Assembly (NCBI GenBank): GCA_964230215.1
Contig: CAXRGQ010000006.1
Coordinates: 174,106-238,105, forward strand
Length of the DNA: 64,000 bases
Direction of reading: 5' to 3'
DNA from: Flavobacteriales bacterium
GTDB lineage: Bacteria > Bacteroidota > Bacteroidia > Flavobacteriales_D > JAUILH01
Shown: positions 24,370 to 42,322 of the stretch, one piece after another
How positions within the stretch are numbered: position 1 is the first letter of the stretch
How the letters are laid out: each line of letters begins with the position of its first letter
Notes under the pieces: generated by a model
What the model was told of the DNA's origin: nothing
Seen by the model: the letters and a program-made list of their open reading frames with translations, nothing else
Databases searched by the model: none
Program-made: the position numbers and the translations under genes

Positions 24370-24469
24370 AGTTAGTTCGTTAATTTGGTTATTAGCTTTA
24401 ATGAATAACCGTAACAATTGTTACATTAAATATACCGTGTTCGATACTGCGCTGTATTATTTTGCCAGC

Positions 24470-24775: not shown

Positions 24776-24911
24776 TCAATTGTGTTTTATGTGTTCTTAG
24801 TTCAATCTATGCTGGTGTTGTTATTCCCATGCACATTTATAGTATACAAAATAAAACTGTGAATATCAAGCCGAATGATGAGCTCAAGATTAGGTGATAT
24901 TCCTTTGTTAA

Positions 24912-25976: not shown

Positions 25977-26028
25977 GGGCTTGATTTCAGTTTACAATGT
26001 ATTGAACAATAACAGAAAAACTTAAAGC

Positions 26029-26508: not shown

Positions 26509-26553
26509 CCATTAATTGTTCTGACGTTTCTTCCTGCTACTAAAGATATACCT

Positions 26554-27360: not shown

Positions 27361-27393
27361 ATATTGTGATACAGATTAGGAGGGAAATCGTTC

Positions 27394-27511
27394 AAGGTAA
27401 TGGGCTAAAATGTGGTTGCCCCAAGGCTTTATTTTGTATAAAAAAAATTAAATTTCTGCTACATACTGGCATAGAGACCTGAGGGTGTATGCAATTATGG
27501 TGTTGTTGGCA
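27394..27511 (-). repeat. attC-like site A (decayed terminal copy of the ~127-bp family)
   Basis: Aligns to sites B, C and D (GGGC..TAAAATG..TGCCCCAAGG, GAGACCTGAGGGTGTATGCAATTATGGTGTTGTTGGC). The right box GTTGGCA is at 27505-27511. The left AAC box is lost. It starts 10 nt after the stop of ORF 27522..27827. Confidence 0.5.
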
Positions 27512-27521
27512 ATAATTACCT

Positions 27522-27827
27522 TTATCTACGTCTTGTTTTATTTTGTCTGTTTTTCTCTCGAATTTTCTCTTTCCTCTCAGCATCAGCAGCTTCTTTTTTA
27601 TATTCCTTATGCATCCAGCTTATGATAAATATGCAAATGATAAAAGGACATAATGTTATAAAGAAACCCCAAAATCGGTTCCGAGTGTGCTGAGCACTTC
27701 CCCATTCATCGTATTGTTTCAAGTCTTTTCCCCATGGTGTAGAATAAAAACCTGAATAAATACAATATAGGTAGTTTATAATAAAGTTACCTGCCAATAA
27801 AAACAACCATATTGTCGAGGATTTCAT
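27522..27827 (-). CDS. cassette ORF: small membrane protein, 101 aa, with a basic tail
   Basis: Three hydrophobic helices. The ATG lies 6 nt from the box of site B and the stop lies 10 nt from site A. Confidence 0.6.
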   Translation of the reverse strand: MKSSTIWLFLLAGNFIINYLYCIYSGFYSTPWGKDLKQYDEWGSAQHTRNRFWGFFITLCPFIICIFIISWMHKEYKKEAADAERKEKIREKNRQNKTRRR

Positions 27828-27833
27828 AATTGT

Positions 27834-27960
27834 TGCTAACGGGGCAGGGTAAAACGCGTGTGCCCCAACGTTTAGTTTATCTAATATACGTATTATTGTT
27901 TTGGGTACTCATTATTCGTTTGGAGACGTGTGGGCATATGCGATTTACCCGTTGTTGTGG
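27834..27960 (-). repeat. attC-like site B (127 bp)
   Basis: Plus strand reads TGCTAAC-GGGGCAGGGTAAAACGCGTGTGCCCC...GGGCATATGCGATTTACCC-GTT-GTTGTGG. The arms form a ~19-25 bp imperfect stem with a 3/6-nt unpaired spacer next to the AAC/GTT boxes. Confidence 0.65.
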
Positions 27961-28229
27961 TGCGTTTTTATTTTTTCTTCGATTAATTTCTTCGCTATTA
28001 TTAGACAATGTTCACGACTTCCAATAACCCCAATCGTTTCGGTTTCAATTTTATAAAGTCTGTCCGCAATTTCTTTCTCTGTTTTATTGTGAATTAGTAA
28101 GGAGAAAATTTCTGGCACGTAACTTTGATACTCATCTCTGGGTGCAAAGTCATTCACTCCAATCGGGTCCCATTCGTTCCATAGGATTTCGTCAACAGAA
28201 TTATATAATTTTTTTTGCTCGCTCGTCAT
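27945..28229 (-). CDS. cassette ORF, 94 aa hypothetical (WDPIGV...DEY motif, immunity-protein-like)
   Basis: Overlaps the upstream ORF by 4 nt. Its stop codon lies inside site B (GGGTAAATCGC). Confidence 0.55.
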   Translation of the reverse strand: MTSEQKKLYNSVDEILWNEWDPIGVNDFAPRDEYQSYVPEIFSLLIHNKTEKEIADRLYKIETETIGVIGSREHCLIIAKKLIEEKIKTHHNNG

Positions 28230-28513
28230 TCTTTGTCTTCTTGCGATACAAATGGATATTCGGAAAAATAGACATCCATACCAATCATTCCCATTGTTTT
28301 CATTGATGCGGCGTTCAATACTCCACCGCCACCGTTTGCGTCTTTCCTTATGTCAAATCCAATGTCAGCTATATATTTACTTGGCTTTAATGTTTTCCCT
28401 TTATCCATCAGCCAAGTTTCAAGAGCATCAATTTGTGTAGGTAAATCCCATGCTTCATCACATAGCCATTCCAATTTTTCTCCTGAGTCTTCGATATAAA
28501 TATTTATTGGCAT
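28226..28513 (-). CDS. cassette ORF, 95 aa hypothetical
   Basis: The ATG lies 20 nt from the CCACAAC box of site C. Translationally coupled to the next ORF. Confidence 0.55.
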   Translation of the reverse strand: MPINIYIEDSGEKLEWLCDEAWDLPTQIDALETWLMDKGKTLKPSKYIADIGFDIRKDANGGGGVLNAASMKTMGMIGMDVYFSEYPFVSQEDKE

Positions 28514-28533
28514 TTCTCGGTTCTTTTAATGCA

Positions 28534-28660
28534 CCACAACGGGGCAGGGTAAAACGCGTGCCCCAAAACGTTTTGTTTATCTAAAAATACAAAATATAAT
28601 TTCAGCTACTAATTATACGTCTGAAGACGCGAGGGGTATGCGATTTACCCGTTGTTAGGC
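28534..28660 (-). repeat. attC-like site C (127 bp) with a canonical GTTAGGC core
   Basis: Reads CCACAAC-GGGGCAGGGTAAAACGCGTG-CCCC...GGGGTATGCGATTTACCC-GTT-GTTAGGC. It shares 23-nt and 20-nt identical arm segments with site B. Confidence 0.7.
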
Positions 28661-28841
28661 TTAGTTACATAAAAATCATTAAATTCATTTCTTTTGAAAA
28701 ATTATCGGATTACTACAAAAAATAAAAGGTAAAACAAGCGTTTGGCAAGCCATAGTAATTGCGTTTTTTATTGGATGCGCAATTTGGGCTTATTGGCAAG
28801 AAAGGGAATTAAAGGAAAATCATGTATATTGTATAGGGACG

Positions 28842-29087
28842 GTGATAAAAAAGTGGAGAATGGTGAGTGGTAGACAAGTGCGGGTTAAATTTTATTATCG
28901 TGGAAAGTGGCGAACCGCCTCCGAAAATCAGGGGAATCATAAATTAGAAATAGGGGATAGAGTTTATGTGAAAATTAACCCGGAAAATGAATACACCCGA
29001 ATAATGCATGAGTATATTGCTTGCGATAGCCTAGAAACGGGACAACAGCCAACAGAAGGTTGGAAAGAAATACCATGCTTAAAATAA
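28842..29087 (+). CDS. hypothetical protein (DUF3592-like: TM helix plus beta domain); start unresolved, possibly frameshifted
   Basis: The frame is open from 28698 and encodes a TM helix (WQAIVIAFFIGCAIWAYW), but it has no ATG, GTG or TTG before 28842. A TTG at 28694 opens a 12-codon frame that would join after a 1-nt shift in an A-run. Confidence 0.4.
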   Translation: MIKKWRMVSGRQVRVKFYYRGKWRTASENQGNHKLEIGDRVYVKINPENEYTRIMHEYIACDSLETGQQPTEGWKEIPCLK

Positions 29088-29089
29088 TA

Positions 29090-29578
29090 CTACCTTACGT
29101 TTATAGCTATAAGCCAGGAAATAAGACCTGACAAAAGAATTGTAGTAATCGCAAATGCTATAGGATACCTTGTTGCTAGGTTATCGTTGAGATTTAGATT
29201 ATTAATTTCTTTATCAATTTGTTCCCTAACTAGAGGTGCTATTTCTTTCTGAAATTTTAGCGCATCAAATTCAAGTTGCTGCTTTTCCTTGTTTTCTTTT
29301 AATTCTTGCTGTAGCTTTTTAACATGCAATAAGTAACCACCAAAATCAACTATGTCAATACCATGTTGAGTTATATAAATTTCGTTTTGATGTCTAGGTG
29401 TACCTTTTATTATTAATCGATCACTTATCATTTCTGTAATTAATGCATTTTTCTCAATGTCATTCATATTAATATCACACGCTTCAAAAACTTTGAGATA
29501 ATGCTTTGCGTCTGCACAGTCACGTAAGTAATTAAGTATTGCGTCTATATTTTTATGTTTTGAGCTATTCTCGGTCAT
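29090..29578 (-). CDS. cassette ORF, 162 aa, coiled-coil protein with a C-terminal TM anchor
   Basis: I moved the start to MTENSSKHK (ATG 29576-29578), 8 nt inside the GCCTAAC box. The track's 29665 start would read across the recombination-site-like sequence. Confidence 0.55.
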   Translation of the reverse strand: MTENSSKHKNIDAILNYLRDCADAKHYLKVFEACDINMNDIEKNALITEMISDRLIIKGTPRHQNEIYITQHGIDIVDFGGYLLHVKKLQQELKENKEKQQLEFDALKFQKEIAPLVREQIDKEINNLNLNDNLATRYPIAFAITTILLSGLISWLIAINVR

Positions 29579-29586
29579 AGAATTAA

Positions 29587-29636
29587 GCCTAACTACGGGA
29601 TAAACCCAATTAACAAATAAATCTACATATAAATCC
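29587..29636 (-). other. attI-like half-site 1 (R box, L box and direct repeats)
   Basis: GCCTAAC (complement of site C's GTTAGGC), then TAC, then GGGATAAACCC. The motif ATAAAYC occurs three times (29600, 29617, 29629). No partner arm is present. Confidence 0.5.
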
Positions 29637-29685
29637 ATCAACAAGCAAAAAAGAACTAATAGCATGATTTACAAATACATATGTA

Positions 29686-29872
29686 TTTACAAACGACTGT
29701 AAACGTCATTTAAATACTTATCTACCGACTAGTACTTTTCAACTCCCCCATCTTTGCACCGTCGATTGAAACAAAGCCGGCTTGTGACAAAAGACACCGT
29801 GCCTAATGTGCAGATAACTAATAACGAAAACATACATACACATTAGGAAATGTTAAACCTTAATTTTTTAAA
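29686..29872 (+). promoter_or_regulatory. conserved ssb leader/promoter region, copy 1
   Basis: Near-identical in both copies. It has a CATCTTTG box (TAnnTTTG-like), the palindrome AAGCCGGCTT (29773-29782), and a 9-bp hairpin CCTAATGTG (29802-29810) / CACATTAGG (29839-29847). Confidence 0.45.
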
Positions 29873-30205
29873 ATGAACAACTTAAGAAACAAAGTACAGT
29901 TAATCGGGAATGCGGGAATGGAACCTGAAATTAAAGATGTAAACGGAAGTAAATTGGCTAAACTATCCATTGCTACCAACGAAACATACACCAACAAATC
30001 AGGTGAACGTGTTACAGACACACAATGGCACAACATTGTTGCCTGGGGAAAGACAGCCGAGTTAATTGAACGTTTCGTTACAAAAGGTAAAGAAATAGCG
30101 ATTGAAGGCAAACTAAACACTCGCTCATACGAAGATCAAGATGGTAATAAACGTTATGTGACGGAGATTATCATGAATGATTTCTTGCTGTTGGGTGCTA
30201 AGTAA
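29873..30205 (+). CDS. ssb: single-stranded DNA-binding protein, short form (110 aa, no acidic C-terminal tip)
   Basis: OB-fold SSB pattern: NKVQLIGNAG..PE...LAKLSIATNE...GERVTDTQWHNIVAWGKTAELIERFVTKGKEIAIEGKLNTRSYEDQDG.KRYVTEI. Confidence 0.85.
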   Translation: MNNLRNKVQLIGNAGMEPEIKDVNGSKLAKLSIATNETYTNKSGERVTDTQWHNIVAWGKTAELIERFVTKGKEIAIEGKLNTRSYEDQDGNKRYVTEIIMNDFLLLGAK

Positions 30206-30238
30206 ATGGAGTAGCCCATATTTTCTCTCATAAACTTA

Positions 30239-30273
30239 AGTCCTGTTCTGAAATTTTCGAAGCAGGACTTTTA
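30239..30273 (+). terminator. rho-independent terminator of ssb copy 1
   Basis: AGTCCTGTTCTG...AGCAGGACT followed by TTTT. The stem is homologous to the copy-2 terminator. Confidence 0.7.
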
Positions 30274-30280
30274 TTGCATA

Positions 30281-30853
30281 TTAAAAGTCTTTTAAAACTA
30301 AGCCTTTGCCAGTGTAATCAACTAATAATTGCTTACCCTTCAATCCCATCCTCTCTAATTCTTCATCTTCTGGCGCAAAATGATGATTTATATTTAGGTA
30401 GATTTCGTTCAGTCCATCTGCATCAAAATCATGAACTACAAAAGCCGGTAAGTATTCTCCTATTTCATTTGAATGCTGTATTTCCTCTGGATAAGGGAAG
30501 TCCGTATAAATAATTGGGAACTCAATACGCTGAGCAACTGTGGACAAGCCGACTTCAAGGTGATAGTATGCATGAGCGCCACCATTACTGATAAAACATA
30601 TTGTGTCTTTTATACCATCCTCATCAAGATCCCACAAATCTGTATATTCATAATGCAAAAGGTCCACTGCCAAAGTCGAATCGTACACATAATGTGCGTA
30701 TTGTGAATTTGGGAGGTCTACAAACTGACTATCTTCAATTGAGTGTGCCTTTACAGTTGACGAATCTATACTTTCATTGCTTGCATGAACTTCTGGTTTT
30801 TTCTCAGAATTACACGCGATTGCAATGACTAGTATAGGGATATATTTCTTCAT
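30281..30853 (-). CDS. lipoprotein, hypothetical (D-x-D-x-DG calcium-binding-like motifs)
   Basis: Lipobox VIAIAC. Contains DLDEDGIKD and DFDADGLNE. Confidence 0.5.
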   Translation of the reverse strand: MKKYIPILVIAIACNSEKKPEVHASNESIDSSTVKAHSIEDSQFVDLPNSQYAHYVYDSTLAVDLLHYEYTDLWDLDEDGIKDTICFISNGGAHAYYHLEVGLSTVAQRIEFPIIYTDFPYPEEIQHSNEIGEYLPAFVVHDFDADGLNEIYLNINHHFAPEDEELERMGLKGKQLLVDYTGKGLVLKDF

Positions 30854-30915
30854 ACTAATGACTTTACAAATATATCATCTCATCAAATAAATATTGATAA
30901 GGTCGGCCTAGAAAC

Positions 30916-31332
30916 TCAATTTAGCCGTCTAAAGCCAATTGTCTGATTGGTTGTTTTAAGTAAGAAGTGGTCATGATCAACAAAGTTTATTTGACCAAAA
31001 ATAAACGTGTCTTTTTTAGCGCTTGACACCGAGAAAGTAGTCAAAGTGCTATCACGTATCATCCATTCGTAATAGTGTGAACTATCAATTTCAATAGGTA
31101 CTAAGTAGTTCTGCTCAAATATACCGTCCTTATGAAAGCTGAATACATAGCCATCCATTTCTGAATAATCAATTGATAAAAATGTAAATCCTTCTTTAGG
31201 GATGCCCTCAAAATTATTCTCAACAGAAACTAGATTCCAGCTACCCACAATATCGTTTGTTACGTTTTTCGTATCCTCCAGTGATGAACAGGCAGCCATC
31301 AAAATAATTGCTATGTAAATAAAGCTTTTCAT
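30916..31332 (-). CDS. lipoprotein, hypothetical (lipocalin-like size)
   Basis: I prefer the start at MKSFIYIAIILMAAC (lipobox). This removes the overlap with hipA. Confidence 0.5.
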   Translation of the reverse strand: MKSFIYIAIILMAACSSLEDTKNVTNDIVGSWNLVSVENNFEGIPKEGFTFLSIDYSEMDGYVFSFHKDGIFEQNYLVPIEIDSSHYYEWMIRDSTLTTFSVSSAKKDTFIFGQINFVDHDHFLLKTTNQTIGFRRLN

Positions 31333-31339
31333 ATCTGGA

Positions 31340-32653
31340 TTATTTAAATCTAGGAGCAATTAAGGTGTTTAAAATCAAATCCCTTAGTTCTTGTGACACA
31401 TTTGTCTTCGTGGCGTACTCTCTCCAGTTACACACCACTGATTTAATCTCTTCAATTATCTTTTCGCCCTTTTTTATGCTGTTATCTGAGGCAATTTTAA
31501 TTAAGTCTGAAGTATTAATGTCCTTGTGTTTCCCACAAATACTTAGCGTATGCTGACTTACCCAAACGTTTTTTGGATCGTACGAATAGCAGACATCATA
31601 GGCTGGCGCCAACTCCCATTTTCCATGTTGTTTCAACATGAATGAAAAGTTCTTGGTGTGGTCGTCATAATTAGTCGCCATCACATTAAACACCATTCTT
31701 CTGAACATCTGCTCGGCCTCTGGATAGGTCATTCTTAACATCCGCATAGTCTGAAATAGCTGCTCATAACTGTAGCCGTATAGGTTGTTGTAGTCGAAAT
31801 GTTGAATGCCGCAGAATGTCTGAATATGATGCTTATCATTATTCCCCTCCCTATCAAAACGTTTGGTCATAAAATGTGCCCTATCATTCTCCTCTAACAA
31901 TTTACTTTCCATCATTTCAATGCCACAGTCTCTAGCCATCAAGTAATAGGCATACTCTACTCTTCCGTAACCAGAACTAACACCGAATTGCGTATCACTT
32001 ACACCATCAAGTTTAATTAACCAGTGTTCGAATCCTTTGGGGACATTGCTCTGACCAGACCTTACTTCACCCGTTTTTTGATTATAAGCGATTACAGCTT
32101 TTGGCCTAGCACCGCCTGCAGAAGTACCAATAGTGAGTATCTCACGCATTGCCTTTTGCTCATCTTTATGCAGGTTGGTTTCGAACTTCTCTCTGTTCGA
32201 CAACATTTTGTGTGCTATGTCTACTAAGCTTTTAATTTCGATAGCAAACGTTCTTTCTTTAGGTTTTATCTGTGCAGGCTCAAATTCCAAAGCACCCATT
32301 CCCCTTGAGCCAATGAAACAAAGTTGTTCGACAGGGTTCATACTATTCGGTGCGCGACCTTCTTGTGCTAACCAGATATTTATCAATTGATTTCCATATT
32401 TATCTGGCAGTGCATCTGCCAATAAACCCGGAAGCCCTTTGAAAGTGGATGTCTCTTCCCCTTTCTGTTTTCTCAATTCCGGAAAACTGTATATGCGGTC
32501 TCCATTACTTATAGGCATTTTTAATGGAGATAGGTCAATGTCCTTTGCAAGAAACTTTTTATCAAATTGAAAACTGGCTAGCTGACGATTTTCGTCCCAG
32601 CGAGCGGCACCTACGAGTTGTCCCCAAATTTTTATTTCTACTACATCTACCAT
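31340..32653 (-). CDS. hipA: HipA-family serine/threonine kinase toxin (type II TA)
   Basis: 437 aa. N-terminal HipA-coupling region and a C-terminal kinase core with GGARPK and DDHTKNFSF. Confidence 0.85.
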   Translation of the reverse strand: MVDVVEIKIWGQLVGAARWDENRQLASFQFDKKFLAKDIDLSPLKMPISNGDRIYSFPELRKQKGEETSTFKGLPGLLADALPDKYGNQLINIWLAQEGRAPNSMNPVEQLCFIGSRGMGALEFEPAQIKPKERTFAIEIKSLVDIAHKMLSNREKFETNLHKDEQKAMREILTIGTSAGGARPKAVIAYNQKTGEVRSGQSNVPKGFEHWLIKLDGVSDTQFGVSSGYGRVEYAYYLMARDCGIEMMESKLLEENDRAHFMTKRFDREGNNDKHHIQTFCGIQHFDYNNLYGYSYEQLFQTMRMLRMTYPEAEQMFRRMVFNVMATNYDDHTKNFSFMLKQHGKWELAPAYDVCYSYDPKNVWVSQHTLSICGKHKDINTSDLIKIASDNSIKKGEKIIEEIKSVVCNWREYATKTNVSQELRDLILNTLIAPRFK

Positions 32654-32994
32654 TCGGATGCCTCATTAGATGAATCGCCTTTGCTGCTAGCTCTACTTCT
32701 TTTGTTTTTCTGAAGTTTGGCATATTCAATTGGACTTATTTCATCATTAACTTTAAAAGCGTCCATTATAAACAGTAGGTCTAACACTCTTAACACTTGA
32801 ATCAGACTCATCAAGTTCACCTTTTCACCACGCTCTAAAAGACTCAGTGTAGAACGGCTAATATTTGCAGCTTCAGCCACTTCATTTTGAGATTTGTTCT
32901 GATTTAAGCGGTGATGTTGGACAAATTTCCCTATGGTTTCAACGAGCGATTTATCACTCATCGAATACCAATCAATGTATGAATTATCATTCAT
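32647..32994 (-). CDS. XRE-family HTH antitoxin (HipB-like)
   Basis: Overlaps hipA by 8 nt. HTH segment KSQNEVAEAANISRSTLSLLERGE. Confidence 0.75.
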   Translation of the reverse strand: MNDNSYIDWYSMSDKSLVETIGKFVQHHRLNQNKSQNEVAEAANISRSTLSLLERGEKVNLMSLIQVLRVLDLLFIMDAFKVNDEISPIEYAKLQKNKRSRASSKGDSSNEASEW

Positions 32995-33013
32995 ATTACG
33001 CTTTTTATATTAT

Positions 33014-33023
33014 TAACGCGTTA
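33014..33023. promoter_or_regulatory. candidate operator palindrome upstream of the hipB-like gene
   Basis: Perfect 10-bp palindrome TAACGCGTTA, 20 nt upstream of the start codon. Confidence 0.3.
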
Positions 33024-33170
33024 TATATCATTCAAATATACACATAAGATTTCAGACACACAACACTTGATGAATGATTTATCACTCACTAACTTCAAAT
33101 TAAAAGCCTAGTGAATTGTTTTTCATTCAAAACAAAGACACATATATCTTGTTTGAACAAAAATATACAA

Positions 33171-33542
33171 CTACCTATGCTGATCAATCAGAATAGCATT
33201 GCCATCAGGGTCTTTAAGCACTATGCTCGCTGGTCCGTTAGTGCTTTCGTCTGCTCTGCTGTCCAGTACTATTCCTTGTGACTCAAGGTGCTTTTGAATA
33301 TCTCTTACATCCTCAAACGGGTCTACGTTTTGTGCACTCTGGTCCCAGCCTGGGTTAAAAGTGAGAATATTGCCTTCAAACATGCCTTGGAAAAGACCTA
33401 TAACGGTTTCTCCGTTTTTCATTATCAGGTAGTTTTGTTCCATGTTGCCTGCAAACATTTCGAATCCCAATTTCTCATAGAATTCCTTTGATGTTTGTAA
33501 GTCTTTTACGCTTAGACTGATTGAGTGTGCTCCCAGTTTCAT
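33171..33542 (-). CDS. VOC (glyoxalase/bleomycin-resistance) family protein
   Basis: 123 aa. [20 protein letters not shown] and DPDGNAILI are typical of the VOC fold. Confidence 0.75.
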
Positions 33543-33606
33543 GTTTTGTTAGTTTGATTTGATTGCTTTTTTAATATTAATCTTGCTTAATGATATTTGA
33601 CAAATT

Positions 33607-34260
33607 CTAATCCCGCACAAAAAATGTCTTAGAGATAATTTCTTGATAACTGTTATTCCTTTTACCATTTAAACGAAAAACGATAATATCATTATCACCT
33701 GGTAATACCAGATAACATGATTTAACTCTGTCAAGGCCAATGCATCCTTCACATGTTAGTGTTACCTCAGTGAATTCAGGATCATAAGCAGTAAAGATTT
33801 TATTTTCTTCGCTTCTAATGAGGGTGTCGCTTTCAGATTCGTTATAAATTCTATTAAGCGATGAATCAGGTGCAGCATTATAAATAAAATATCTGGTAGA
33901 GACTAACTGTCTATGTCCTGTATTTAGCGTGAATTGTAATTGATATGGTTTTTTGATTTCGGTCTTATCTGAAAGTAATTTAAACGGAAGTTCTATTTGT
34001 CCCAATTCCTCACTTGGAATTAAGTGTGTGCCTATACCATACACTGTCCCATATATCCCAACAAGATTTGCGTTAATCGTATACTGGGCAGTACTATCAA
34101 AATCTGCTGAGTCAATAGCATATTCAAATCCAACCTTAAATTTATCAGGTAATACTTCATCATTATTAACGGGCTGAGAAATTACCTCTAAGTATCCCTG
34201 TGCTTCACATGGTATCGCTAAAGCAAATAAGATGGAGCTGGTTATTATAAATCGAAACAT
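33607..34260 (-). CDS. secreted hypothetical protein, 217 aa
   Basis: Signal peptide (LFALAIPCEAQ). Confidence 0.5.
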   Translation of the reverse strand: MFRFIITSSILFALAIPCEAQGYLEVISQPVNNDEVLPDKFKVGFEYAIDSADFDSTAQYTINANLVGIYGTVYGIGTHLIPSEELGQIELPFKLLSDKTEIKKPYQLQFTLNTGHRQLVSTRYFIYNAAPDSSLNRIYNESESDTLIRSEENKIFTAYDPEFTEVTLTCEGCIGLDRVKSCYLVLPGDNDIIVFRLNGKRNNSYQEIISKTFFVRD

Positions 34261-34463
34261 TCAATTTTTATTTAATTTATTGGACTACAAAATACATTAT
34301 TCTAACGTCTATTTCCACTCTTATTAGACGCCATCTTCTTCTGTATTGTATCATTAGCGGTATACTGCCAATGCTCTTTCAATTTAAGTAATAATTCTCT
34401 GGCGTCATAATAATCACAGTAAGCGGCTAAGGGAAACTTTTTACAGGAAATTATATTCTGTGC

Positions 34464-35003
34464 TTAGAAACTTTGTGGCGCTTGAAGCTGTGACCTTATT
34501 ATTTGAACAAACTTATCATATTTCTCTGGTCCCAGTAGTTGCTTTGATATAATATCGAACAATTCATTATTTGCCAGATACAAGTATACATCATCACCAT
34601 TAATTGAATATGATCTTATGGCTGTCCATTTGGTTTCCGAATTATGATTTTCAGACACGTATTTAATTGTATTTGAGTCAAAGTAAAATGTATAAGCCAT
34701 ATCCATGGATTTATTTCGCTGGTCTAATTCTTTTAAAGATCTGTCCCTTACTAATTGAAAGCGAATGAGAAATACTAACAGATACAATACTGAAATGCCA
34801 ATACTAACACAACCTATTATCCATAGTATGCGAATCTTTAGAGCTAATCCTGATGCAATCAAAGCACAACACACTAAAGCCCCAAGCCAAACGGGCAACT
34901 TCTTTAATTCACGTTGCTGTTCATACTTGAAATACTTCTCAAATATCTGCCTAGTTCTTTCTTTATCATATATTATCCTTACTTCCTCCAAGTCTAAAAT
35001 CAT
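34464..35003 (-). CDS. YcxB-like membrane protein
   Basis: Two central TM helices followed by a C-terminal beta-rich domain. Confidence 0.45.
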   Translation of the reverse strand: MILDLEEVRIIYDKERTRQIFEKYFKYEQQRELKKLPVWLGALVCCALIASGLALKIRILWIIGCVSIGISVLYLLVFLIRFQLVRDRSLKELDQRNKSMDMAYTFYFDSNTIKYVSENHNSETKWTAIRSYSINGDDVYLYLANNELFDIISKQLLGPEKYDKFVQIIRSQLQAPQSF

Positions 35004-35085
35004 TTAAGTAAAGTGGTGCACATACAGGTATTTTATACGTTTTATGTTTAATAATTTAATATTTAGCACGTATCATATTCCTAAA

Positions 35086-35640
35086 CTATTGAATCAATCT
35101 TAAATCAGAAATATTAAGACTTAATACTACCAAACCTATTTTATTGAATTCTATTTGGGTCTCAGTAGATATTTTGGTGATTACCTTATTTAGGTTTTGT
35201 AAAATCTCTTCAGATTGCATTTTACTCAAAACCTCCCGTGACCTTCCGATAGAAATATCTTCAACAAGGTGAGTTATATCTGCACGTGAACAGCCAAGCA
35301 ACCTTTCCACAGCATTCATGGTATATTTGGGATCAGTCGAAATGGCTGCTTTAATTGTTGTTGCCATCCTAACACGTTTGTTATCTTCTGTGATATACAT
35401 AGCTGAGTTGATATCCACATGATATGGGGTTAAATCTAGAAAATCATATTCTTGAATGATAGGCCAAACAAAAGCTCTCCCCCCGTGAACAAGCTTATAT
35501 AACTCTCCTGTTTCAATCTTCCCGTATATAACCATTATTTTATCTGGAGGACACTTAATTAACCGTTTGAATAATACAACTATCCATAGAACTAGCATTA
35601 ATCCAAATGCCCCAAGAAAGATAAGAAGTGAGTCGTCCAT
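35086..35640 (-). CDS. SPFH/band-7 (flotillin N-terminal-like) domain membrane protein, short form
   Basis: N-terminal TM helix, then IKCPPDKIMVIYGK...GGRAFVWPIIQEYDFLDLTP. Only ~184 aa, lacking the flotillin coiled-coil. Confidence 0.55.
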   Translation of the reverse strand: MDDSLLIFLGAFGLMLVLWIVVLFKRLIKCPPDKIMVIYGKIETGELYKLVHGGRAFVWPIIQEYDFLDLTPYHVDINSAMYITEDNKRVRMATTIKAAISTDPKYTMNAVERLLGCSRADITHLVEDISIGRSREVLSKMQSEEILQNLNKVITKISTETQIEFNKIGLVVLSLNISDLRLIQ

Positions 35641-35691
35641 TGTTATTGTTTTAGGTAAGAGAGTTTGGTTTTCGTGATGTAAATCTTATCC

Positions 35692-36225
35692 TTAACGCCT
35701 TTTCCTTTTAGAAATCTTTTTAGGTTTATATTCAACTATTTCAAATCCGAGTTTATCACTAAGCTCCTTGATTTTACTTTTGGCGGCAGATAATGAATCA
35801 GCTTGTTGTATTACAAACTTGCTTAAATGATTGTCATTAAGTAAAACGATTGTAAACACCTGGTCACTAAACTGGCTTGGCAATGCTCCTCTCATGTTCA
35901 TGTTATAAGCAACATTGGTACTGGTTATTGCCAAATACTTGTATGGGTTTAAGTCTCTCCATTTACCCCATTTTAACCCAAGTGATGAAGAGAATTTGCG
36001 CAATTTCTTTTTCTCTAAGTCAATTTCAACGCCTTCATATGAGCTCAGAATAAATGCACCCGCTATAAAAGCTACAATACCTGCGATTGGTCTTGCAGAA
36101 GGACTAACCGCTATTTCTACTTTATCAGGTGTGGAGATTAATACAATACCAAATATTATAAGCAAAACAGCAACTACAATGAACATCACTGGGAAAGTCA
36201 AGCCGAAATTTTCTTTTATTCTCAT
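35692..36225 (-). CDS. membrane protein, hypothetical
   Basis: I prefer the start at MRIKENFG. Two TM helices, a soluble domain and a basic tail. Confidence 0.45.
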   Translation of the reverse strand: MRIKENFGLTFPVMFIVVAVLLIIFGIVLISTPDKVEIAVSPSARPIAGIVAFIAGAFILSSYEGVEIDLEKKKLRKFSSSLGLKWGKWRDLNPYKYLAITSTNVAYNMNMRGALPSQFSDQVFTIVLLNDNHLSKFVIQQADSLSAAKSKIKELSDKLGFEIVEYKPKKISKRKRR

Positions 36226-36281
36226 AATGATTTTCAAACAAGCCAAGTGGCATTGATTAAGAATGAATTATATCCGTTTTT

Positions 36282-36566
36282 TTAGTTACCACAGTTTTCT
36301 TGAGCTTTCAGGTATTCTTTCTCCGCCAGATCTTCAAGTTCTTGAATCTCATTTTCCTTCATCCCAGATTCTTTCGCATCTTCAATCACTTCTAGAATTC
36401 TATTCTCAGCTTCTACCATGCCCTGCTCATCCCTTTCGCACCAAGCTTGACCTTTATCCATTGCATATTCCTTAATTAGCTCTTTCGGTTTCTTGGAGTT
36501 ACATGAGGATATGACAATTCCTCCTGTAACAATTAATGCTTGTATTAATCTTAAACTGAATATCAT
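36282..36566 (-). CDS. small acidic lipoprotein
   Basis: I moved the start to MIFSLRLIQALIVTGGIVISSC (lipobox), 9 nt from site D. The track's N-terminal extension reads into the repeat. Confidence 0.5.
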   Translation of the reverse strand: MIFSLRLIQALIVTGGIVISSCNSKKPKELIKEYAMDKGQAWCERDEQGMVEAENRILEVIEDAKESGMKENEIQELEDLAEKEYLKAQENCGN

Positions 36567-36575
36567 ATTAAACAA

Positions 36576-36708
36576 TACTAACGGGGCAGGATATAGCGGA
36601 TGCCCCACAGGTTTAGTTTATCTAATATACGGATTATTATTTCGGGTAATTATTGTCTGTTTGGAGACCTAAGGGCACATGCAGTTTAATCATTGCTGCA
36701 TGTTAGTC
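36576..36708 (-). repeat. attC-like site D (133 bp, same family as B and C)
   Basis: TACTAAC-GGGGCAGGATATAGCGGATGCCCC. The central GTTTAGTTTATCTAATATAC...GTTTGGAGAC is shared with B. The site ends ...GGGCACATGCAGTTTAATCATTGCTGCAT-GTTAGTC. The hepT stop codon TAA sits inside the GACTAAC box. Confidence 0.65.
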
Positions 36709-37044
36709 ATCTAGAAACTTCTTTACTTCAGGTAATAACTTAGGCAGGTCTTTGGTTACAATGGCCCAAATTATTGCATCCGAAATTGTGTCATAACCAT
36801 GTATTATTCTATTTCTTGTATCCACAATTTTTCGTGCGTTTTCAATTGGGAAATCACTTTGGAGTTTTAGAATTCGATTTACTGCTTCTCCTATAATTTC
36901 AAGACTTCTCTCAATTGCTCGCTTAGTCTTTAAATCATTCTGGAATTCAAAATAATTCCTTTTTTCTGGCAGGAATGAGTTAATCTCTAGTATGGCGTCA
37001 TGAATATCAATTAACCAAACTTTAATTTCTTTCTCCATACACAA
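36703..37044 (-). CDS. hepT: HepT (DUF86) ribonuclease toxin
   Basis: R-x4-H-x-Y motif (RNRIIHGY). 113 aa. Overlaps mntA. Confidence 0.8.
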   Translation of the reverse strand: MCMEKEIKVWLIDIHDAILEINSFLPEKRNYFEFQNDLKTKRAIERSLEIIGEAVNRILKLQSDFPIENARKIVDTRNRIIHGYDTISDAIIWAIVTKDLPKLLPEVKKFLDD

Positions 37045-37330
37045 GAACTTTTGATTTATCTATTTCAGATTTTAAAAGCTGATTTCTGATAGCTCCATCC
37101 TCTAATAGATCAATCTTTCTATTAAGAAGTTTTTCCAGTTGGAATTTCAGATTAAAGTATTTTTCCGAATAAGAAATGGGATCACTATCCTCAATGGATA
37201 CAATAAGATCAATGTCGCTTTCGTCATTAAATCTATCAGTTGTTACTGAACCAAAAGCGAATAATGTAGACACCCTATTACTAGAGCATAACTCCTTAAT
37301 TTGGGCAATATATTTATCCAAATATGCCAT
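37022..37330 (-). CDS. mntA: MntA nucleotidyltransferase antitoxin
   Basis: GSVTTDRFNDESDIDLIV (GS...DxD). I moved the start to MAYLDKYIAQ. The track's extension to 37447 reads through site E. Confidence 0.75.
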   Translation of the reverse strand: MAYLDKYIAQIKELCSSNRVSTLFAFGSVTTDRFNDESDIDLIVSIEDSDPISYSEKYFNLKFQLEKLLNRKIDLLEDGAIRNQLLKSEIDKSKVLVYGERN

Positions 37331-37388
37331 CCTCATCCAAAGATACGAATAGTAAGGTAAAGTAGTTTCAGTCCTATTGGTTAATGTG

Positions 37389-37455
37389 ATGCAACGGTCC
37401 GTGTATGTTGTCGTAGCATCCCAAAGGGTGCTATGCAATATACACATTGTTGTGT
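37389..37455 (-). repeat. attC-like site E (67-bp short hairpin type)
   Basis: ATGCAAC-GGTCC-GTGTAT-GT-TG-TCG-TAGCA [loop TCCCAAAGGG] TGCTA-TG-CA-AT-ATACAC-ATT-GTTGTGT. It is an imperfect palindrome with bulges and AAC/GTT ends. Confidence 0.6.
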
Positions 37456-37584
37456 TTTCGTGCTTTATTTAATTCTTTTTCAGCGGTGGTAAAGCCATAC
37501 TCTTTTACAATTTTTGGTTATAGCGTTGGCTGGTGCGAATTGCAAATGTGTATGGTTTTAAGCGTTGGGTTGATTTCTGAGTGT

Positions 37585-37610
37585 TACTTATAGTCTTTGA
37601 TTTATAGTCC
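37585..37610 (+). promoter_or_regulatory. tandem C-boxes (controller-protein operator)
   Basis: TACTTATAGTC-TTTGA-TTTATAGTC matches the GACTnnnAGTC x2 architecture of R-M controller operators. It lies ~23 nt upstream of the C-gene start. Confidence 0.6.
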
Positions 37611-37632
37611 ACATTTCCTCAAATTTGCAACT

Positions 37633-37869
37633 GTGGAAATAAAATCAAAAATAGGAGCTCGGATCAAAGAATTGAGGGATGATAAGCAAATGTCTCAAAA
37701 AGATTTAGCTTATGCTTCTGATTTAGACCGCAGTTACATTGCAAGTGTTGAAAATGGTCAAAGAAATATATCAATTGTCAATATTGAAAAAATTGCTGTT
37801 GCACTTGGAGTTACATTAAAAGATTTTTTTAGGAATGACAAATTTGATAACGATACAACAAGCAGTTGA
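37633..37869 (+). CDS. R-M controller (C) protein, XRE-family HTH
   Basis: HTH segment MSQKDLAYASDLDRSYIASVENGQRNIS. I prefer GTG 37633 (78 aa, close to the C-boxes). Overlaps the next gene by 35 nt. Confidence 0.7.
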   Translation: MEIKSKIGARIKELRDDKQMSQKDLAYASDLDRSYIASVENGQRNISIVNIEKIAVALGVTLKDFFRNDKFDNDTTSS

Positions 37870-38644
37870 TGGATTTAAAGAACTTATAGAAACTTCAATT
37901 GTTGAAGGTGGAATTAAAGCAAAAGAAGCAATTATTAGGTCATCACGACCAATTAACTTTATTCACGAGGCTGTCAAAGCCGATTTTATTAGAAAAAGAA
38001 TTTCTCCTGATAGAATCCATCCACCTCTTGGAGAATCAAAACCTGAACTTAAATTAGCTGGTTTTATTAAACAGAAACATCAAGATGTTTGCGTTGCACC
38101 TGAAGGATATGTTCCAGAATCTGAAACAATGACTGAAGGGATTTTAAGAGAAGCAACTGATTATTATGGTAAAGATTATACAGAACGTACAATTTCTGTA
38201 AACATTAGAAGTCAAATGAGTTCTCTTGCTAAAAACTTTGACACACTTTATGAAAGAACTATTGCCGAAGCTCAAAACCTGCACGTTAGATGTCAGAAAA
38301 TGGTGCTTGGAGAAGTTTATATGATTCCTGTAAAAGAATATGATGCGTCTGTAATGGATGAAAAAAGAGTTGAATTTATTGACCGAATAGGCGCAGTTGA
38401 GAAATATATCAAATCATTCCAAGCAATTAACGGAAGACCTAATCATGAACGAGAAGATTACAAGTATGAACGAGTTTGCTTGCTGCTTGTAGACTTTCAA
38501 CAAGCACCTGCAAAGATTTATAGTACAAATCAGGAACTTTATGATGATGGACTTTTAGATGAAGCTTCCGATGCCAGTATCGAAGAGCTTTCTTGGGAAA
38601 CATTTACGGATTCTATTCTAAATTCATATAAGAATAGATTCTAA
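37835..38644 (+). CDS. putative restriction endonuclease subunit 1 (269 aa)
   Basis: Lies between the C gene and the methyltransferase. Paralog of the next ORF. Shared blocks: AGFIK.K.QD, GKDYTE, VN(I/V)RSQMSS, RC.KMVLGE, EDYKYER.CL.L.DF. Confidence 0.55.
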   Translation: MTNLITIQQAVDGFKELIETSIVEGGIKAKEAIIRSSRPINFIHEAVKADFIRKRISPDRIHPPLGESKPELKLAGFIKQKHQDVCVAPEGYVPESETMTEGILREATDYYGKDYTERTISVNIRSQMSSLAKNFDTLYERTIAEAQNLHVRCQKMVLGEVYMIPVKEYDASVMDEKRVEFIDRIGAVEKYIKSFQAINGRPNHEREDYKYERVCLLLVDFQQAPAKIYSTNQELYDDGLLDEASDASIEELSWETFTDSILNSYKNRF

Positions 38645-39597
38645 TGGCTAAAAGCAAAATTTTAAGTAAAAGAAAATCTGCTCAACTCGAGAGAGTTAAG
38701 GCTACCGCCCATCATAATATCGTTAATGCAACACCACAAAATATATTGCAGGTTGCTTGCGATAATTTCAAATTTGTATTTGAACAAGCAGTTAGAATTG
38801 GAGGTGTTAAAGGAAAACAAAGTTTAACGACTTCAAGCAAGCACATTAACTTGTTTCATGAGGTGGTGAAATCAGAATTAATACGTAATGGAGTTAGAGC
38901 AGATTTGGTTTTTCCATCACAATATAATTCTACTGGTGAAATAAATTTTGCAGGATTTATTAAAGCAAAAAAGCAAGATATTTCGGCAGTTCCATCAGCT
39001 TTCATCAATAATGAAACCCCTGAAACCATAACAGTTGGTATGATGACAGGGGAAACAGACCCATTTGGGAAAGATTATACTGAAAATTCTCTTGTTGTAA
39101 ATGTGCGAAGTCAAATGAGTAGTATTGGGAAGAACAACGATACTATTGTGGAAAGAGCTTTTGCTGAAACTCTTAATCTTCATATGAGATGTCCGAAAAT
39201 GGTATTAGGTGAATTTTTTATTCTTCCAATAACTGGTTTTAACATGGATGAAGTGAAAAAACATAACCCAGCTTATGAAAGCATAATTACTACAAAAGTT
39301 AATAGTAGAAGTAAAACAACCGCTGAATCAATTGAGAAAACGATTAATACCTATGCTTCTATAAACAACAGAAACATTAGTAATGGCGAAGATTATAAAT
39401 ACGAGAGATTGTGTTTAATCTTGGCAGATTTTAGTCAAAGCCCAGTAAAAATATATAGAAATGATGCTGATTTAATTTCGGATAACTTGTTACCACCAAA
39501 CACTACAGCAACTTTAAATGGTTTAGGTTATGATAGTTTTATTTCAGATTTACTGGCTATTTATTCGACAAGGTTTGGTACAGGTAAGTTTAGTTGA
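38644..39597 (+). CDS. putative restriction endonuclease subunit 2 (317 aa, paralog)
   Basis: Its ATG overlaps the subunit-1 stop. Roughly 35-40% identity to subunit 1 by eye. Confidence 0.55.
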   Translation: MAKSKILSKRKSAQLERVKATAHHNIVNATPQNILQVACDNFKFVFEQAVRIGGVKGKQSLTTSSKHINLFHEVVKSELIRNGVRADLVFPSQYNSTGEINFAGFIKAKKQDISAVPSAFINNETPETITVGMMTGETDPFGKDYTENSLVVNVRSQMSSIGKNNDTIVERAFAETLNLHMRCPKMVLGEFFILPITGFNMDEVKKHNPAYESIITTKVNSRSKTTAESIEKTINTYASINNRNISNGEDYKYERLCLILADFSQSPVKIYRNDADLISDNLLPPNTTATLNGLGYDSFISDLLAIYSTRFGTGKFS

Positions 39598-41438
39598 TAT
39601 TTTTCAACTAAAAATTCGTCAATCTCTATTTTGTCATTAAGACTTTTTAGTAGCTCAATTTCATTTTGAGTGAAATTTGGAATACTAAACTTTTCAATGA
39701 AGTTCTTTTGATAGCAAGGGAAACCGCCTTGAATAGAAACACTCGTGTTACTTACATAATAGTCCATTACAATAGAGTTCAATATTTTTTGAACAACCAA
39801 AATATTTTCTTCTTTTGACATTGGATGAGTTACATCATCAAATAACATTGCCTTATTTGAATGATCTCTATCAAAATAAATTCCGTAACCGTTTGTATAA
39901 TAAGCATCTTCCTCTTGCACAAATAAAAATCTTGGGTGTTTACTAAATGTTGGATTCAATAATTTTTTACCAAATCTTGTAATTCCTTGTGTTCTTCCCC
40001 AGGCATAAAATGGAGTAAATATTTTTTTTCCTTTTCCTCTTCCTTCTAATTTCTCCTTTTCAGAAAGAAGGTATTCGTAGCATTTCGGATATATTATTTT
40101 GAATTCATCCTCCAAAATTGGAACTGCATTTTTCGAGTCTGTTTGATAAGGAGTAATAATTCTTAAAGTGTTGTTTTCAATATCTTTTTGATTTTTAAAT
40201 TGAGATATTTTGTAAACTGGTTTTGTGATTTCTTTTTCTATTAAAAATGTTCCGTTTTCTGTGCTTTTAGTTAGATAACCATTTTTTTGGTTTGCAGAAT
40301 CTATAAAAAAGACTTCATCTTTTAAGGTTGCAATTCCAACAGCAATATTGAATAATTGTTTTATTGGAGTTCCAATATTTTCAATGATTTTGATATTTTC
40401 TTGTTCTTGGGTTTTAAGTAAACGCCATTTATTTACATTGAGGTTTTCTAGATAGTTTGGCGAACCATTTGCAGATATTAAAAAGTTTGCACAAGTCTGT
40501 TCATCTTTGATTTTATCGAATAGAATAGAATCGTTTTTCTTCTTGTCCAAGAATGTAATTGCGGTATAAGTTTGAGCGTCAAAAACCTTTTTATGCCTAA
40601 AATCTACAATTCGTGTAACGCATTTATTTTGCAGAAAATATTGACGAAGCGATAAACCTGCCAGTGATGTAAAGTAATTGTTTGGCGTTATATAGCCTAG
40701 CTTTCCTTCTTTTTCTAAAAGTTTATGCCCCAATTCAAAAAAAGCAAAATATAAATTGAAAGTTCCGTTTTCAATACTTTTCCAATTGTTTATTAAATAA
40801 TGCCTGTTTTCATCACTTAAATCTTGAAACTTGACATATGGTGGATTCCCAACAATAATTTCAAATTTAGTTGACCAATCAGCTTTTAAGCTATCTTGAT
40901 TGAAGATATTAAAGTCAGATTCTTCTATTATCTCATTTTTTAGAAGTCCATAGAGTGATAAAATTATTTTTGAGCGTTTTACATTGTAGTCCAATATATC
41001 AGATCCATAAATATTTTCTCGGATAGTTGCCTTGATACTTTTATTAAAAGTCTTTTGGTAATATTCAGCCAAGCCAATTAAAAATGCCCCACAACCACAG
41101 CTTGGGTCTAAGCATTTGTCATTTTCTTTTGGTGATACTTCATTGATAATAAAATCAACAACGTATGTTGGTGTAAAAAATGCTCCATTAACTTTTCTGT
41201 CGTTTTTAGGAATTAAAAGTTCAAGATAATTCTCTAATAGTTTTAAATCCTTAATCTCAAGAGTTGAAACAAGTAAGTAGATTTCAGACTCTGGTTTAAA
41301 GTCCATTAATATTTCCGAAATTATTGGACTTTTTGTTGAAGCTAAATCATTGTTTTGAAGAAAAGAATAAATGAGATGTTTCTCAACAAGGTTAATCTCG
41401 TGAGAGTTAAGTAATTCATTTATTACACTTTTTTTCAT
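39561..41438 (-). CDS. N6-adenine DNA methyltransferase (Eco57I/TaqI-like gamma class), 625 aa
   Basis: Motif I LDPSCGCGAFL, motif IV VGNPPYV, and a long C-terminal target-recognition region. Convergent with the nuclease genes. Confidence 0.8.
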   Translation of the reverse strand: MKKSVINELLNSHEINLVEKHLIYSFLQNNDLASTKSPIISEILMDFKPESEIYLLVSTLEIKDLKLLENYLELLIPKNDRKVNGAFFTPTYVVDFIINEVSPKENDKCLDPSCGCGAFLIGLAEYYQKTFNKSIKATIRENIYGSDILDYNVKRSKIILSLYGLLKNEIIEESDFNIFNQDSLKADWSTKFEIIVGNPPYVKFQDLSDENRHYLINNWKSIENGTFNLYFAFFELGHKLLEKEGKLGYITPNNYFTSLAGLSLRQYFLQNKCVTRIVDFRHKKVFDAQTYTAITFLDKKKNDSILFDKIKDEQTCANFLISANGSPNYLENLNVNKWRLLKTQEQENIKIIENIGTPIKQLFNIAVGIATLKDEVFFIDSANQKNGYLTKSTENGTFLIEKEITKPVYKISQFKNQKDIENNTLRIITPYQTDSKNAVPILEDEFKIIYPKCYEYLLSEKEKLEGRGKGKKIFTPFYAWGRTQGITRFGKKLLNPTFSKHPRFLFVQEEDAYYTNGYGIYFDRDHSNKAMLFDDVTHPMSKEENILVVQKILNSIVMDYYVSNTSVSIQGGFPCYQKNFIEKFSIPNFTQNEIELLKSLNDKIEIDEFLVEKYQLNLPVPNLVE

Positions 41439-41601
41439 TCTTCTTTCTGTTGACTATAAGTAACAAAATTATGGTTTTTATCCGAGCTATCCAAATTGTA
41501 GAGTTGGGAAAATTTTAGCTCTTTTGGTTTTTTCAGCATTGGGAAAGATCGTGGGCAAAAACCAAATGTGCTAAATGTGCGGCTGGATTTTTTTGCATGA
41601 A

Positions 41602-41651
41602 ACACAACTACTGGGATAAACCCAATTACCACATAAATCTAATCAAAATCC
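41602..41651 (-). other. attI-like half-site 2
   Basis: ACACAAC (complement of site E's GTTGTGT), then TACT, then GGGATAAACCC. ATAAACC is at 41616, ATAAATC at 41633 and CAAAATC at 41644. The first ~33 nt are ~90% identical to half-site 1. Confidence 0.5.
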
Positions 41652-41700
41652 TATCAAGACACAAAATTCATTAAAAATCTATCTTTCAATAATATATCCA

Positions 41701-41888
41701 TTTACAAACGACTGTAAACGTCATTTAAATACTTATCTACCGACTAGTACTTTTCCACTCCCCCATCTTTGCACCGTCGATTGAAACAAAGCCGGCTTGT
41801 GACAAAAGACACTGTGCCTAATGTGCAGAATATTAATAACGAAAACATACATACACATTAGGAAATGTTAAACATTAATTTTTATAAA
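41701..41888 (+). promoter_or_regulatory. conserved ssb leader/promoter region, copy 2
   Basis: Same elements as copy 1. The hairpin is CCTAATGTG (41817-41825) / CACATTAGG (41854-41862), and the substitutions between copies fall in its loop. Confidence 0.45.
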
Positions 41889-42221
41889 ATGAACAACTTA
41901 AGAAACAAAGTACAGTTAATCGGGAATGCGGGAATGGAACCTGAAATTAAAGATGTAAACGGAAGTAAATTGGCTAAACTATCCATTGCTACCAACGAAA
42001 CCTACACCAACAAATCAGGTGAACGTGTTACAGACACACAATGGCACAACATTGTTGCCTGGGGAAAGACAGCCGAATTAATCGAACGTTTCGTAACTAA
42101 AGGCAAAGAAATGGCTATTGAAGGTAAACTAAACACTCGCTCATACGAAGATCAAGATGGTAAGAAACGTTATGTGACGGAAATTATCATGAACGATTTC
42201 TTGCTGTTGGGTGCTAAGTAA
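41889..42221 (+). CDS. ssb: single-stranded DNA-binding protein, short form (110 aa), second copy
   Basis: Start set by alignment with copy 1 (MNNLRNK). Only two aa differ (I>M, N>K) against ~12 nt differences. Confidence 0.85.
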   Translation: MNNLRNKVQLIGNAGMEPEIKDVNGSKLAKLSIATNETYTNKSGERVTDTQWHNIVAWGKTAELIERFVTKGKEMAIEGKLNTRSYEDQDGKKRYVTEIIMNDFLLLGAK

Positions 42222-42286
42222 TTAGCCCAAACTGTTAATACTTTGTTGATATTCAGCACAGTAATAAATAACAATTCTTTAATTCA

Positions 42287-42322
42287 AGTCCTGTTCTGTA
42301 TTATCAGAGCAGGACTTTTTTT
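42287..42322 (+). terminator. rho-independent terminator of ssb copy 2
   Basis: 12-bp stem AGTCCTGTTCTG / CAGAGCAGGACT followed by TTTTTTT. Confidence 0.8.

Follow-up and report, generated by a model that had tools for sequence, protein, structure and literature searches.

How does a single chromosomal border come to carry different gene cassettes in different strains when no integrase gene lies beside it, and is such a border an entry site for cassettes or only their remnant? Integrons are reported to be nearly absent from Bacteroidetes (PMC9024848), and attC clusters that lack an integrase are usually treated as debris. The 64-kb stretch of DNA analysed here, hereafter the window, raises the question in a concrete form: a short conserved sequence in front of ssb abuts, on its left, a complete R-M system that has the makings of a cassette, and a related sequence heads a second run of genes upstream. 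A sequence-only reading of the window had taken the two for attI-like half-sites, that is, for the scars of site-specific insertion at a fixed crossover point. Our analysis leads to a reading to which we attach a probability of about 0.55, namely, that a cassette array without an integrase (CALIN-type), in a Flavobacteriales-like genome, has at positions 41602-41642 an attI-like recombination junction that is double-stranded, has been used more than once and was duplicated along with ssb.

The junction consists of a 7-nt box and a neighbouring platform, present in two copies (a slash within a sequence marks the switch or crossover point throughout).

41602-41608, − strand: box ACACAAC, which reads GTTGTGT on the − strand; opening 7 nt of the R-M cassette, with the presumed G/TT crossover among them
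41609-41642, no strand: platform copy 2, TACTGGGATAAACCCAATTACCACATAAATCTAA, the conserved 34 nt at the array head, with two WTAAAYC direct repeats
41643-41888, + strand: variable spacer, then the highly conserved ssb promoter and leader of copy 2 (from sequence alignment)
29587-29593, − strand: box GCCTAAC, which reads GTTAGGC on the − strand and with which cassette C begins at platform copy 1
29594-29626, no strand: platform copy 1, TAC-GGGATAAACCCAATTAACAAATAAATCTAC, with three WTAAAYC direct repeats

The sub-parts of copy 2 are TACT (41609-41612), GGGATAAACCC (41613-41623), AATTACC (41624-41630), ACATAAATCT (41631-41640) and AATCAAAATCC (41641-41651). The sequence and coordinates that had been reported for this site are right to within a few nucleotides, and the earlier estimate of about 30 identities in the first 33 nt after the box becomes, by alignment of the two platforms, 30 of 34 columns with one 1-nt indel. 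Copy 2 and the platform of a related strain, L090, agree at 33 of 34 positions. The next ~60 nt beyond the platform are about 55% identical between alleles, and the platform thus stands out as an island of conservation. The WTAAAYC motifs lie at 29600, 29617 and 29629 in copy 1 and at 41616 and 41633 in copy 2; their background frequency is 0.66 per kb per strand.

On the − strand the junction reads …GGGTTTATCCC(N)GTA-G/TTRRRY. The crossover can be placed no more finely than the invariant AAC, within which the canonical integron position is AA/C on the + strand and G/TT on the − strand. The platform has no attC-like fold in the folding analysis, and within 250 nt to its right there is neither a complementary L' or R' arm nor a GTT. 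It was therefore rejected as a full attC; its left part (…AAC-TAC-GGGATAAACCC) does resemble one arm of the local attC family. No leftward promoter of the Bacteroidota type, Pc-like and directed into the cassettes, is obvious by eye.

Contigs of related strains, reached through SSB variants at 95-99% identity, show what is constant at this border and what is exchanged. Each related strain has a single ssb module adjoining a NUDIX gene, which is the context of copy 2. In BLASTN comparisons the left core ends at position 22906 of the window and the right core starts at the platform; the strain-variable interval between them (22907-41608) measures 18.7 kb here versus 0.55 kb in L090. The junctions are as follows.

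Window, copy 1: GCCTAAC/TAC-GGG…
Window, copy 2: ACACAAC/TACTGGG…
L090, L098 and L099: TGCCAAC/TACAGGG…
L097: GCCCAAC/TAC-GGG…
L094 and L095: TATCAAC/TATAGTT…

In the alignment these five independent junctions all switch at …AAC/TA…, with homologous sequence on the right, unrelated flanks on the left and different 4-nt box cores, so that in each a constant site half is joined to a variable cassette at G/TT. The fixed switch point proposed from two copies is hence found at the same nucleotide in five junctions. The critical case is L097. Its platform is the copy-1 allele (96 of 97 positions identical over the junction-proximal 97 nt), its box is GCCCAAC, its left flank is different and it adjoins the NUDIX gene; the box therefore belongs with the cassette and not with the platform, although only one of the four variable box positions distinguishes L097 from copy 1. 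Co-variation of the box with the platform, which would have spoken against an insertion scar, was looked for across the strains and is not seen.

The constraint on the platform sequence itself is limited to the lineage, since GGGATAAACCC is replaced in L094, L095 and L096, where …TAAATYTAC… and the AAC boundary are still present. The platform-region motif …TAAATCTAC… is kept even in L096, whose SSB is only 76% identical. Two strains show further local detail. In L090 (8730-8750) a deletion extends from inside the gene for a 352-aa lipoprotein (window 22675-23733) to just before GTTGGCA, leaving a 63-aa remnant and a single cassette. In L097 (909-1013) the leader of the first cassette holds two inverted repeats, CGTGATATTTTCACG and GCGTGAAATAATCACGC, whose sequence suggests an operator or promoter of the cassette's own. 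The far end of the cassette was not found in L094 and L097, or the contig is too short to hold it. Wider searches returned nothing comparable: 80 distant ssb loci from the genome collection have neither synteny nor platform; L082, L084 and L086-L089 give no new junctions, being of the same lineage or on contigs that break inside the ssb repeat; the platform has zero matches in viral contigs and, in the plasmid collection, leads to distant ssb genes only; and the attC-family pattern AACGGGGCAGGN{20,30}GTTTATCTAA has one match in metagenomes, a chance match within a coding region.

To the left of the two platforms lie five attC-like sites in two groups, each group directly left of one platform copy (A0, A and C within 1.3 kb; D and E within 0.9 kb).

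27385-27511, no strand: site A0, degenerate, the farthest from platform 1, with no significant fold
27834-27960, no strand: site A, hairpin fold; − strand ends CCACAAC and GTTAGCA
28534-28660, no strand: site C, z = −3.5, …CCACAAC-GGGGCA-GGGTAAA…TTTACCC-GTT-GTTAGGC; − strand ends GCCTAAC and GTTGTGG
36577-36708, no strand: site D, of the A/C family, partly degenerate and with ~10 nt inserted; − strand ends GACTAAC and GTTAGTA
37389-37455, no strand: site E, z = −4.0, an imperfect hairpin of 59 nt with AAC…GTT at its base; − strand ends ACACAAC and GTTGCAT

The attC-like status of all five was judged by structure only. A generic scan of 20 kb for imperfect hairpins closed by AAC…GTT ranks E first, with A and C in the next two places, and the whole-element folds of the three have z-scores of −2.6 to −4.0. 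These three have the form expected of an attC, an imperfect hairpin of ~57-141 nt with paired R and L boxes, and D and A0 are degenerate versions of it. Both degenerate sites are the ones farthest from the platforms, as expected for old, distal cassettes. At the site ends, where attC has RYYYAAC and GTTRRRY, the AAC and GTT are invariant and the R/Y pattern is only partly followed. At Rfam gathering thresholds the sole match in the window is tRNA.

The link between hairpins and platforms is carried by the boxes. GTTGTGT (37449-37455) and GTTAGGC (28654-28660), the 7-mers with which sites E and C end, complement the copy-2 and copy-1 boxes exactly, and E and C are the attC-like sites nearest to the left of the respective platform; the rule that the box complements the outer box of its nearest left site thus withstands scrutiny in both copies. 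Complementary 7-mer pairs are common by chance, with 195 pairs in the region, and a naive search for them was set aside as uninformative; only pairs at attC ends are meaningful. At those ends the complementarity continues beyond the box, to 12 of 14 ungapped positions in copy 1 (28654 and 29593) and 13 of 15 with one indel in copy 2 (37449 and 41608). The internal cassette ends at 27954 and 28540 and at 27505 and 27840 are complementary at 12 of 14 positions each, and L090 adds a third case beside the two platforms, with GTTGGCA at 8745 and TGCCAAC at 9294 (13 of 15). Random GTT and AAC pairs used as a control reach at least 12 of 14 in 54 of 200,000 trials. Five of six cassettes, including those at both platform junctions and in L090, therefore begin with sequence complementary to their own inverse core, as cassettes with attC do; the exception is the MNT/HepT cassette (36702 and 37395), complementary at only 5 of 14 positions. 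The same A·C mismatch recurs at position 11 in two of the cassettes.

Each platform is preceded on its left by two to three cassettes bounded by attC-like hairpins, with their genes on the − strand.

37450-41601, − strand: body of the first cassette at platform 2 (R-M unit, 4.2 kb), GC 0.30-0.33
37597-37869, + strand: HTH controller of the R-M cassette
37835-38644 and 38644-39597, + strand: two paralogous ORFs of the R-M cassette
39561-41438, − strand: Eco57I/N6-type methyltransferase of the R-M cassette
36703-37388, − strand: second cassette, an MNT (nucleotidyltransferase) and HepT toxin-antitoxin pair, the HepT stop codon lying in the GACTAAC box of site D
28661-29586, − strand: cassette C, with an ORF of 162 aa without family match whose ATG is at 29578, 15 nt past the GTT box
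27961-28533, − strand: cassette with two small ORFs (95 and 94 aa), the second ending inside site A
27512-27833, − strand: cassette with a 101-aa membrane-like ORF; ends 12 of 14 complementary

The R-M unit is poorer in GC than the core (0.30-0.33 vs 0.38-0.41), and its low GC and the R-M and MNT/HepT cargo fit horizontally acquired cassettes. The two paralogous ORFs share 40% identity. Neither matches Pfam or NCBIfam, nor does the second match any PDB sequence; together they may form a restriction endonuclease that is heterodimeric and belongs to a family not yet described. The small cassette ORFs are without family matches, and none of the cassette ORFs matches an immunity family. Co-oriented − strand genes (HipBA, glyoxalase, Band_7, lipoproteins) also fill 30283-36576 and 23746-27360, which make up most of the variable region and in which no attC is recognisable. 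They include a module of the glyoxalase and a 217-aa protein that is common to L094; its homology ends exactly at the glyoxalase stop codon, and no attC is found at its ends.

The organisation of the cassette genes gives the runs a direction. Read on the − strand, each cassette opens with GTT, continues through a leader of 10-27 nt to an ATG, and ends in or beside the next attC, with one stop codon in the L box of site A and another in the GACTAAC box of site D; reading in the other direction would leave one ORF extending over the border of its cassette. On this arrangement the platform is at the 5' end of each run, the position of attI. The structure of the hairpins suggests the reverse. Within the + strand it is the 5' arm that contains the unpaired base of E and, in A and C, the longer of the two spacers; in a canonical attC, such as that of aadA, the strand built in this way is the top strand. 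The hairpins suggest + for that role, opposite to the attI reading, and the ORF organisation suggests −.

The window holds no candidate for the enzyme. Pfam and NCBIfam screens and Pfam annotations reveal no tyrosine recombinase among window ORFs of at least 150 aa or among the cassette ORFs, and Pfam annotations reveal none in the related-strain loci; tblastn with an IntI1 query finds none in either the window (64 kb) or the loci of related strains. At the left end of the variable region there is no integrase, intI or attI. One match to the IntI1 probe, in the distant locus L054, was rejected as Xer-like, below the integron-integrase cut-offs and without cassettes. A complete integron has intI adjacent to attI; here no integrase adjoins the platform or occurs anywhere in the window, and assignment of the platform to the attI family is accordingly not justified. 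The attI-like scar of the sequence-only reading survives in its central part: in five junctions the switch from a conserved platform to a variable box that comes from the cassette occurs at one fixed point. What does not survive, besides membership of the attI family, is the independence of the two sites and the conservation of GGGATAAACCC in L094 and L096. The polarity of the attC-like sites is ambiguous, their unpaired base and spacer asymmetry suggesting the orientation opposite to the one that this reading needs.

The two half-sites are not independent small sites because both are the left edges of one duplicated module. Their similarity runs for ~0.7 kb, through the complete ssb, at 93-96% identity, as a direct repeat of platform, ssb promoter and leader, ssb and terminator whose copies lie 12,016 bp apart. 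Identity between copy 1 and copy 2 is 66% over the 97 nt nearest the junction and 96% in both the leader and ssb.

41889-42221, + strand: ssb copy 2, a short SSB of 110 aa (Pfam SSB, PF00436), the native copy, adjoining the NUDIX gene
42284-42322 (approximate), + strand: terminator hairpin past ssb copy 2 (from repeat analysis)
29873-30205, + strand: ssb copy 1 (Pfam SSB, 1e-29), the ectopic copy, with a downstream flank unlike that of all other strains

Copy 2 is the native ssb, given that synteny with the NUDIX gene holds in all related strains. Copy 1 is a mosaic. Next to the junction it equals the L097 allele; in ssb it is most similar to copy 2, as gene conversion or common descent would explain; and downstream it has a flank found nowhere else among the strains. 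The joint between ssb copy 1 and the second run is unique sequence and not a repeat-mediated join, and the same arrangement was assembled independently in another assembly (L082; GCA_964216795.1). At the contig end of L082 (1-130), sequence of the neighbouring cassette ORF recurs in inverted orientation, which most likely reflects misassembly at the repeat.

The ssb gene and its leader have features of their own. The 5' leader (~29745-29872 and 41761-41888) is more conserved than the ssb coding sequence (88-96%), L094 included: it is 95-96% identical among close strains and 89-90% identical to that of L094, and it contains a long invariant stretch. Conservation of this kind suggests a regulatory leader that may be structured or bound by protein. 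The SSB is a short form of 110 aa that ends in LLLGAK and appears to be without the usual acidic C-terminal tail; its closest homologues in named genera, 63-72% identical, are widespread in Flavobacteriaceae, in unrelated contexts.

These observations can be combined into a mechanism. The 34-nt platform would be the outer edge of the conserved ssb upstream region and would act as the fixed, double-stranded partner, attI-like in function. Circular cassettes carrying a folded attC-type hairpin would recombine into it as in an attI × attC reaction, with strand exchange at G/TT on the − strand (AA/C on the +), giving the product platform/TTRRRY-leader…inverse core-attC. Everything left of the invariant AAC would then stem from the incoming cassette and be complementary to the inverse-core side of its own attC, from which the box rule would follow. 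We infer an IntI-like tyrosine recombinase as the enzyme, which would act in trans or have since been lost. Replacement of a first cassette requires a crossover at the platform junction, and the existence of five different ones argues that the site has been used repeatedly. The second platform would have arisen when the platform-ssb module was duplicated or imported; copy 1, with a platform allele seen at the native position in L097, would now head a second run 12 kb upstream.

Several other accounts of the border deserve to be weighed against this one. If the + strand is the top strand of the attC-like sites, the array would end at the platform, which would be what is left of a terminal attC, its 5' half (R''-L''), joined as a passive relic to the sequence upstream of ssb. 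Two features favour this reading: in E, A and C the unpaired base and the spacer asymmetry are placed as expected if + is the canonical top strand, and …AAC-TAC-GGGATAAACCC resembles an R''-spacer-L'' arm, which in site C reads …AAC-AAC-GGGTAAATCGC on the − strand. A truncated attC is unable to recombine, however, yet five cassettes abut the same nucleotide; the L' or R' partner and the GTT are missing within 250 nt to the right, all cassette ORFs would be antisense, with one of them running across its border, and the left end of the variable region has neither intI nor attI. We regard this account as decidedly unlikely. The border may instead date from a single ancestral insertion at an attG-type (G/WT) genomic site, followed by homologous exchange of arrays, deletions and gene conversion, the platform being kept only for regulation of ssb. 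Insertion of the attG type and integrase-less CALIN and SALIN are documented (bioRxiv 10.1101/2022.09.11.507474), the plain deletion in L090 reaches into a core gene, the mosaic identities point to homologous recombination, and retention of the TAAATCTAC motif in L096 suggests a function linked to ssb. Such a history is nonetheless unlikely: the 5' border of the first cassette is the platform, so that its replacement needs a crossover exactly there; five first cassettes keep AAC/TA, each start complementary to its own far end; and both halves of an attG matter, whereas here only the platform half is constant.

Other alternatives accept that cassettes were inserted and differ as to the machinery. 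The array could be a cassette system outside the integrons, run by another tyrosine recombinase of Bacteroidota (for example an XerD-like enzyme, as in rAID-1) that recognises similar hairpins. True integrons are very rare in Bacteroidetes (PMC9024848), the rAID-1 arrays of Bacteroidales are low in GC and co-oriented and have integron-like intergenic repeats (bioRxiv 10.1101/471110), and the small cassette ORFs have no family match, all of which would suit this account; the integron-specific GTTRRRY and RYYYAAC ends, the imperfect hairpins of 60-130 nt, the absence of an XerD-like gene at either end and the absence of immunity-family matches make it very doubtful. It is also conceivable, but improbable, that Bacteroidota have an integron-like system with a dedicated chromosomal attI-like site beside ssb and not beside intI, served in trans by an unlinked and possibly non-canonical recombinase and maybe using attC of inverted geometry. 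The linkage to ssb could then be functional, since attC sites act as folded single strands. That the pattern is a chance resemblance, or an artefact in which two strain variants were concatenated in a MAG, is scarcely credible: the source is indeed a MAG and other assemblies break their contigs inside the ssb repeat, but the joint from ssb copy 1 to the second run is unique sequence, the arrangement recurs in the independent assembly L082, and the complementarity statistics exclude chance.

The locus belongs to a known kind, the integron-type arrays and CALIN; what is new is a Flavobacteriales-like array of attC-type sites anchored to a conserved junction beside ssb. Like an integron attI (e.g., attI1 of class 1), the platform has a constant left half with a cassette-derived TTRRRY to the right of G/TT, heads a co-oriented cassette run, lacks a hairpin fold, adjoins a divergently oriented gene and contains short direct repeats, loosely comparable to DR1 and DR2. 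Unlike attI, its divergent neighbour is ssb and not intI, with no integrase within at least 20 kb; the site occurs twice, owing to the duplication of ssb; its sequence is unrelated to known attI; and binding by an integrase is putative. With CALIN as defined by IntegronFinder (PMC9024848) it shares two to three attC-like sites per run, short ORFs, toxin-antitoxin and R-M cargo and the lack of an integrase, and it has the operational hallmark of at least two clustered attC with no integrase nearby, the attC being called by structural criteria only. CALIN are usually viewed as decayed or fragmented integrons without a defined entry site, whereas here a conserved chromosomal junction is common to strains with different first cassettes.

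Two further systems offer partial parallels. Insertion into attG takes place at GWT triplets anywhere in genomes, and both halves of the site matter (bioRxiv 10.1101/2022.09.11.507474). The platform resembles attG and SALIN in being a double-stranded chromosomal site outside an integron platform, in its GTT, which fits 5'-GWT-3', and in the integrase-less outcome; attG sites, in contrast, are very numerous and cleaved centrally, and here one site recurs across lineages with only its left half constant. The rAID-1 arrays of Bacteroidales combine low GC and co-oriented genes with repetitive intergenic sequences described as 'reminiscent of integrons' (bioRxiv 10.1101/471110). The present runs come from the same phylum and are likewise low-GC, co-oriented arrays of small genes with repeated intergenic elements. 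They differ in that the repeats have integron-type core and inverse-core ends and that immunity families are missing; membership of rAID-1 was rejected on account of the absent 5' XerD-like recombinase gene by which rAID-1 is defined.

What gives the locus its interest is that cassettes which differ from strain to strain, a complete R-M system among them, have entered at a defined chromosomal junction with no local integrase. If the junction is active in trans, gene capture of the integron type would operate more widely than assumed, and a marine lineage of Flavobacteriales would gain a concrete attI-like sequence and a set of attC open to assay. Should the junction be no more than a relic, it would still be a clean natural example of cassette arrays anchored to, and exchanged at, the border of the core genome.

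A separate feature of the window lies far to the left, at 2597-5447, where three tandem paralogous ORFs with weak or no Pfam matches, each of ~315 aa, account for the repeat families D4 and D5.
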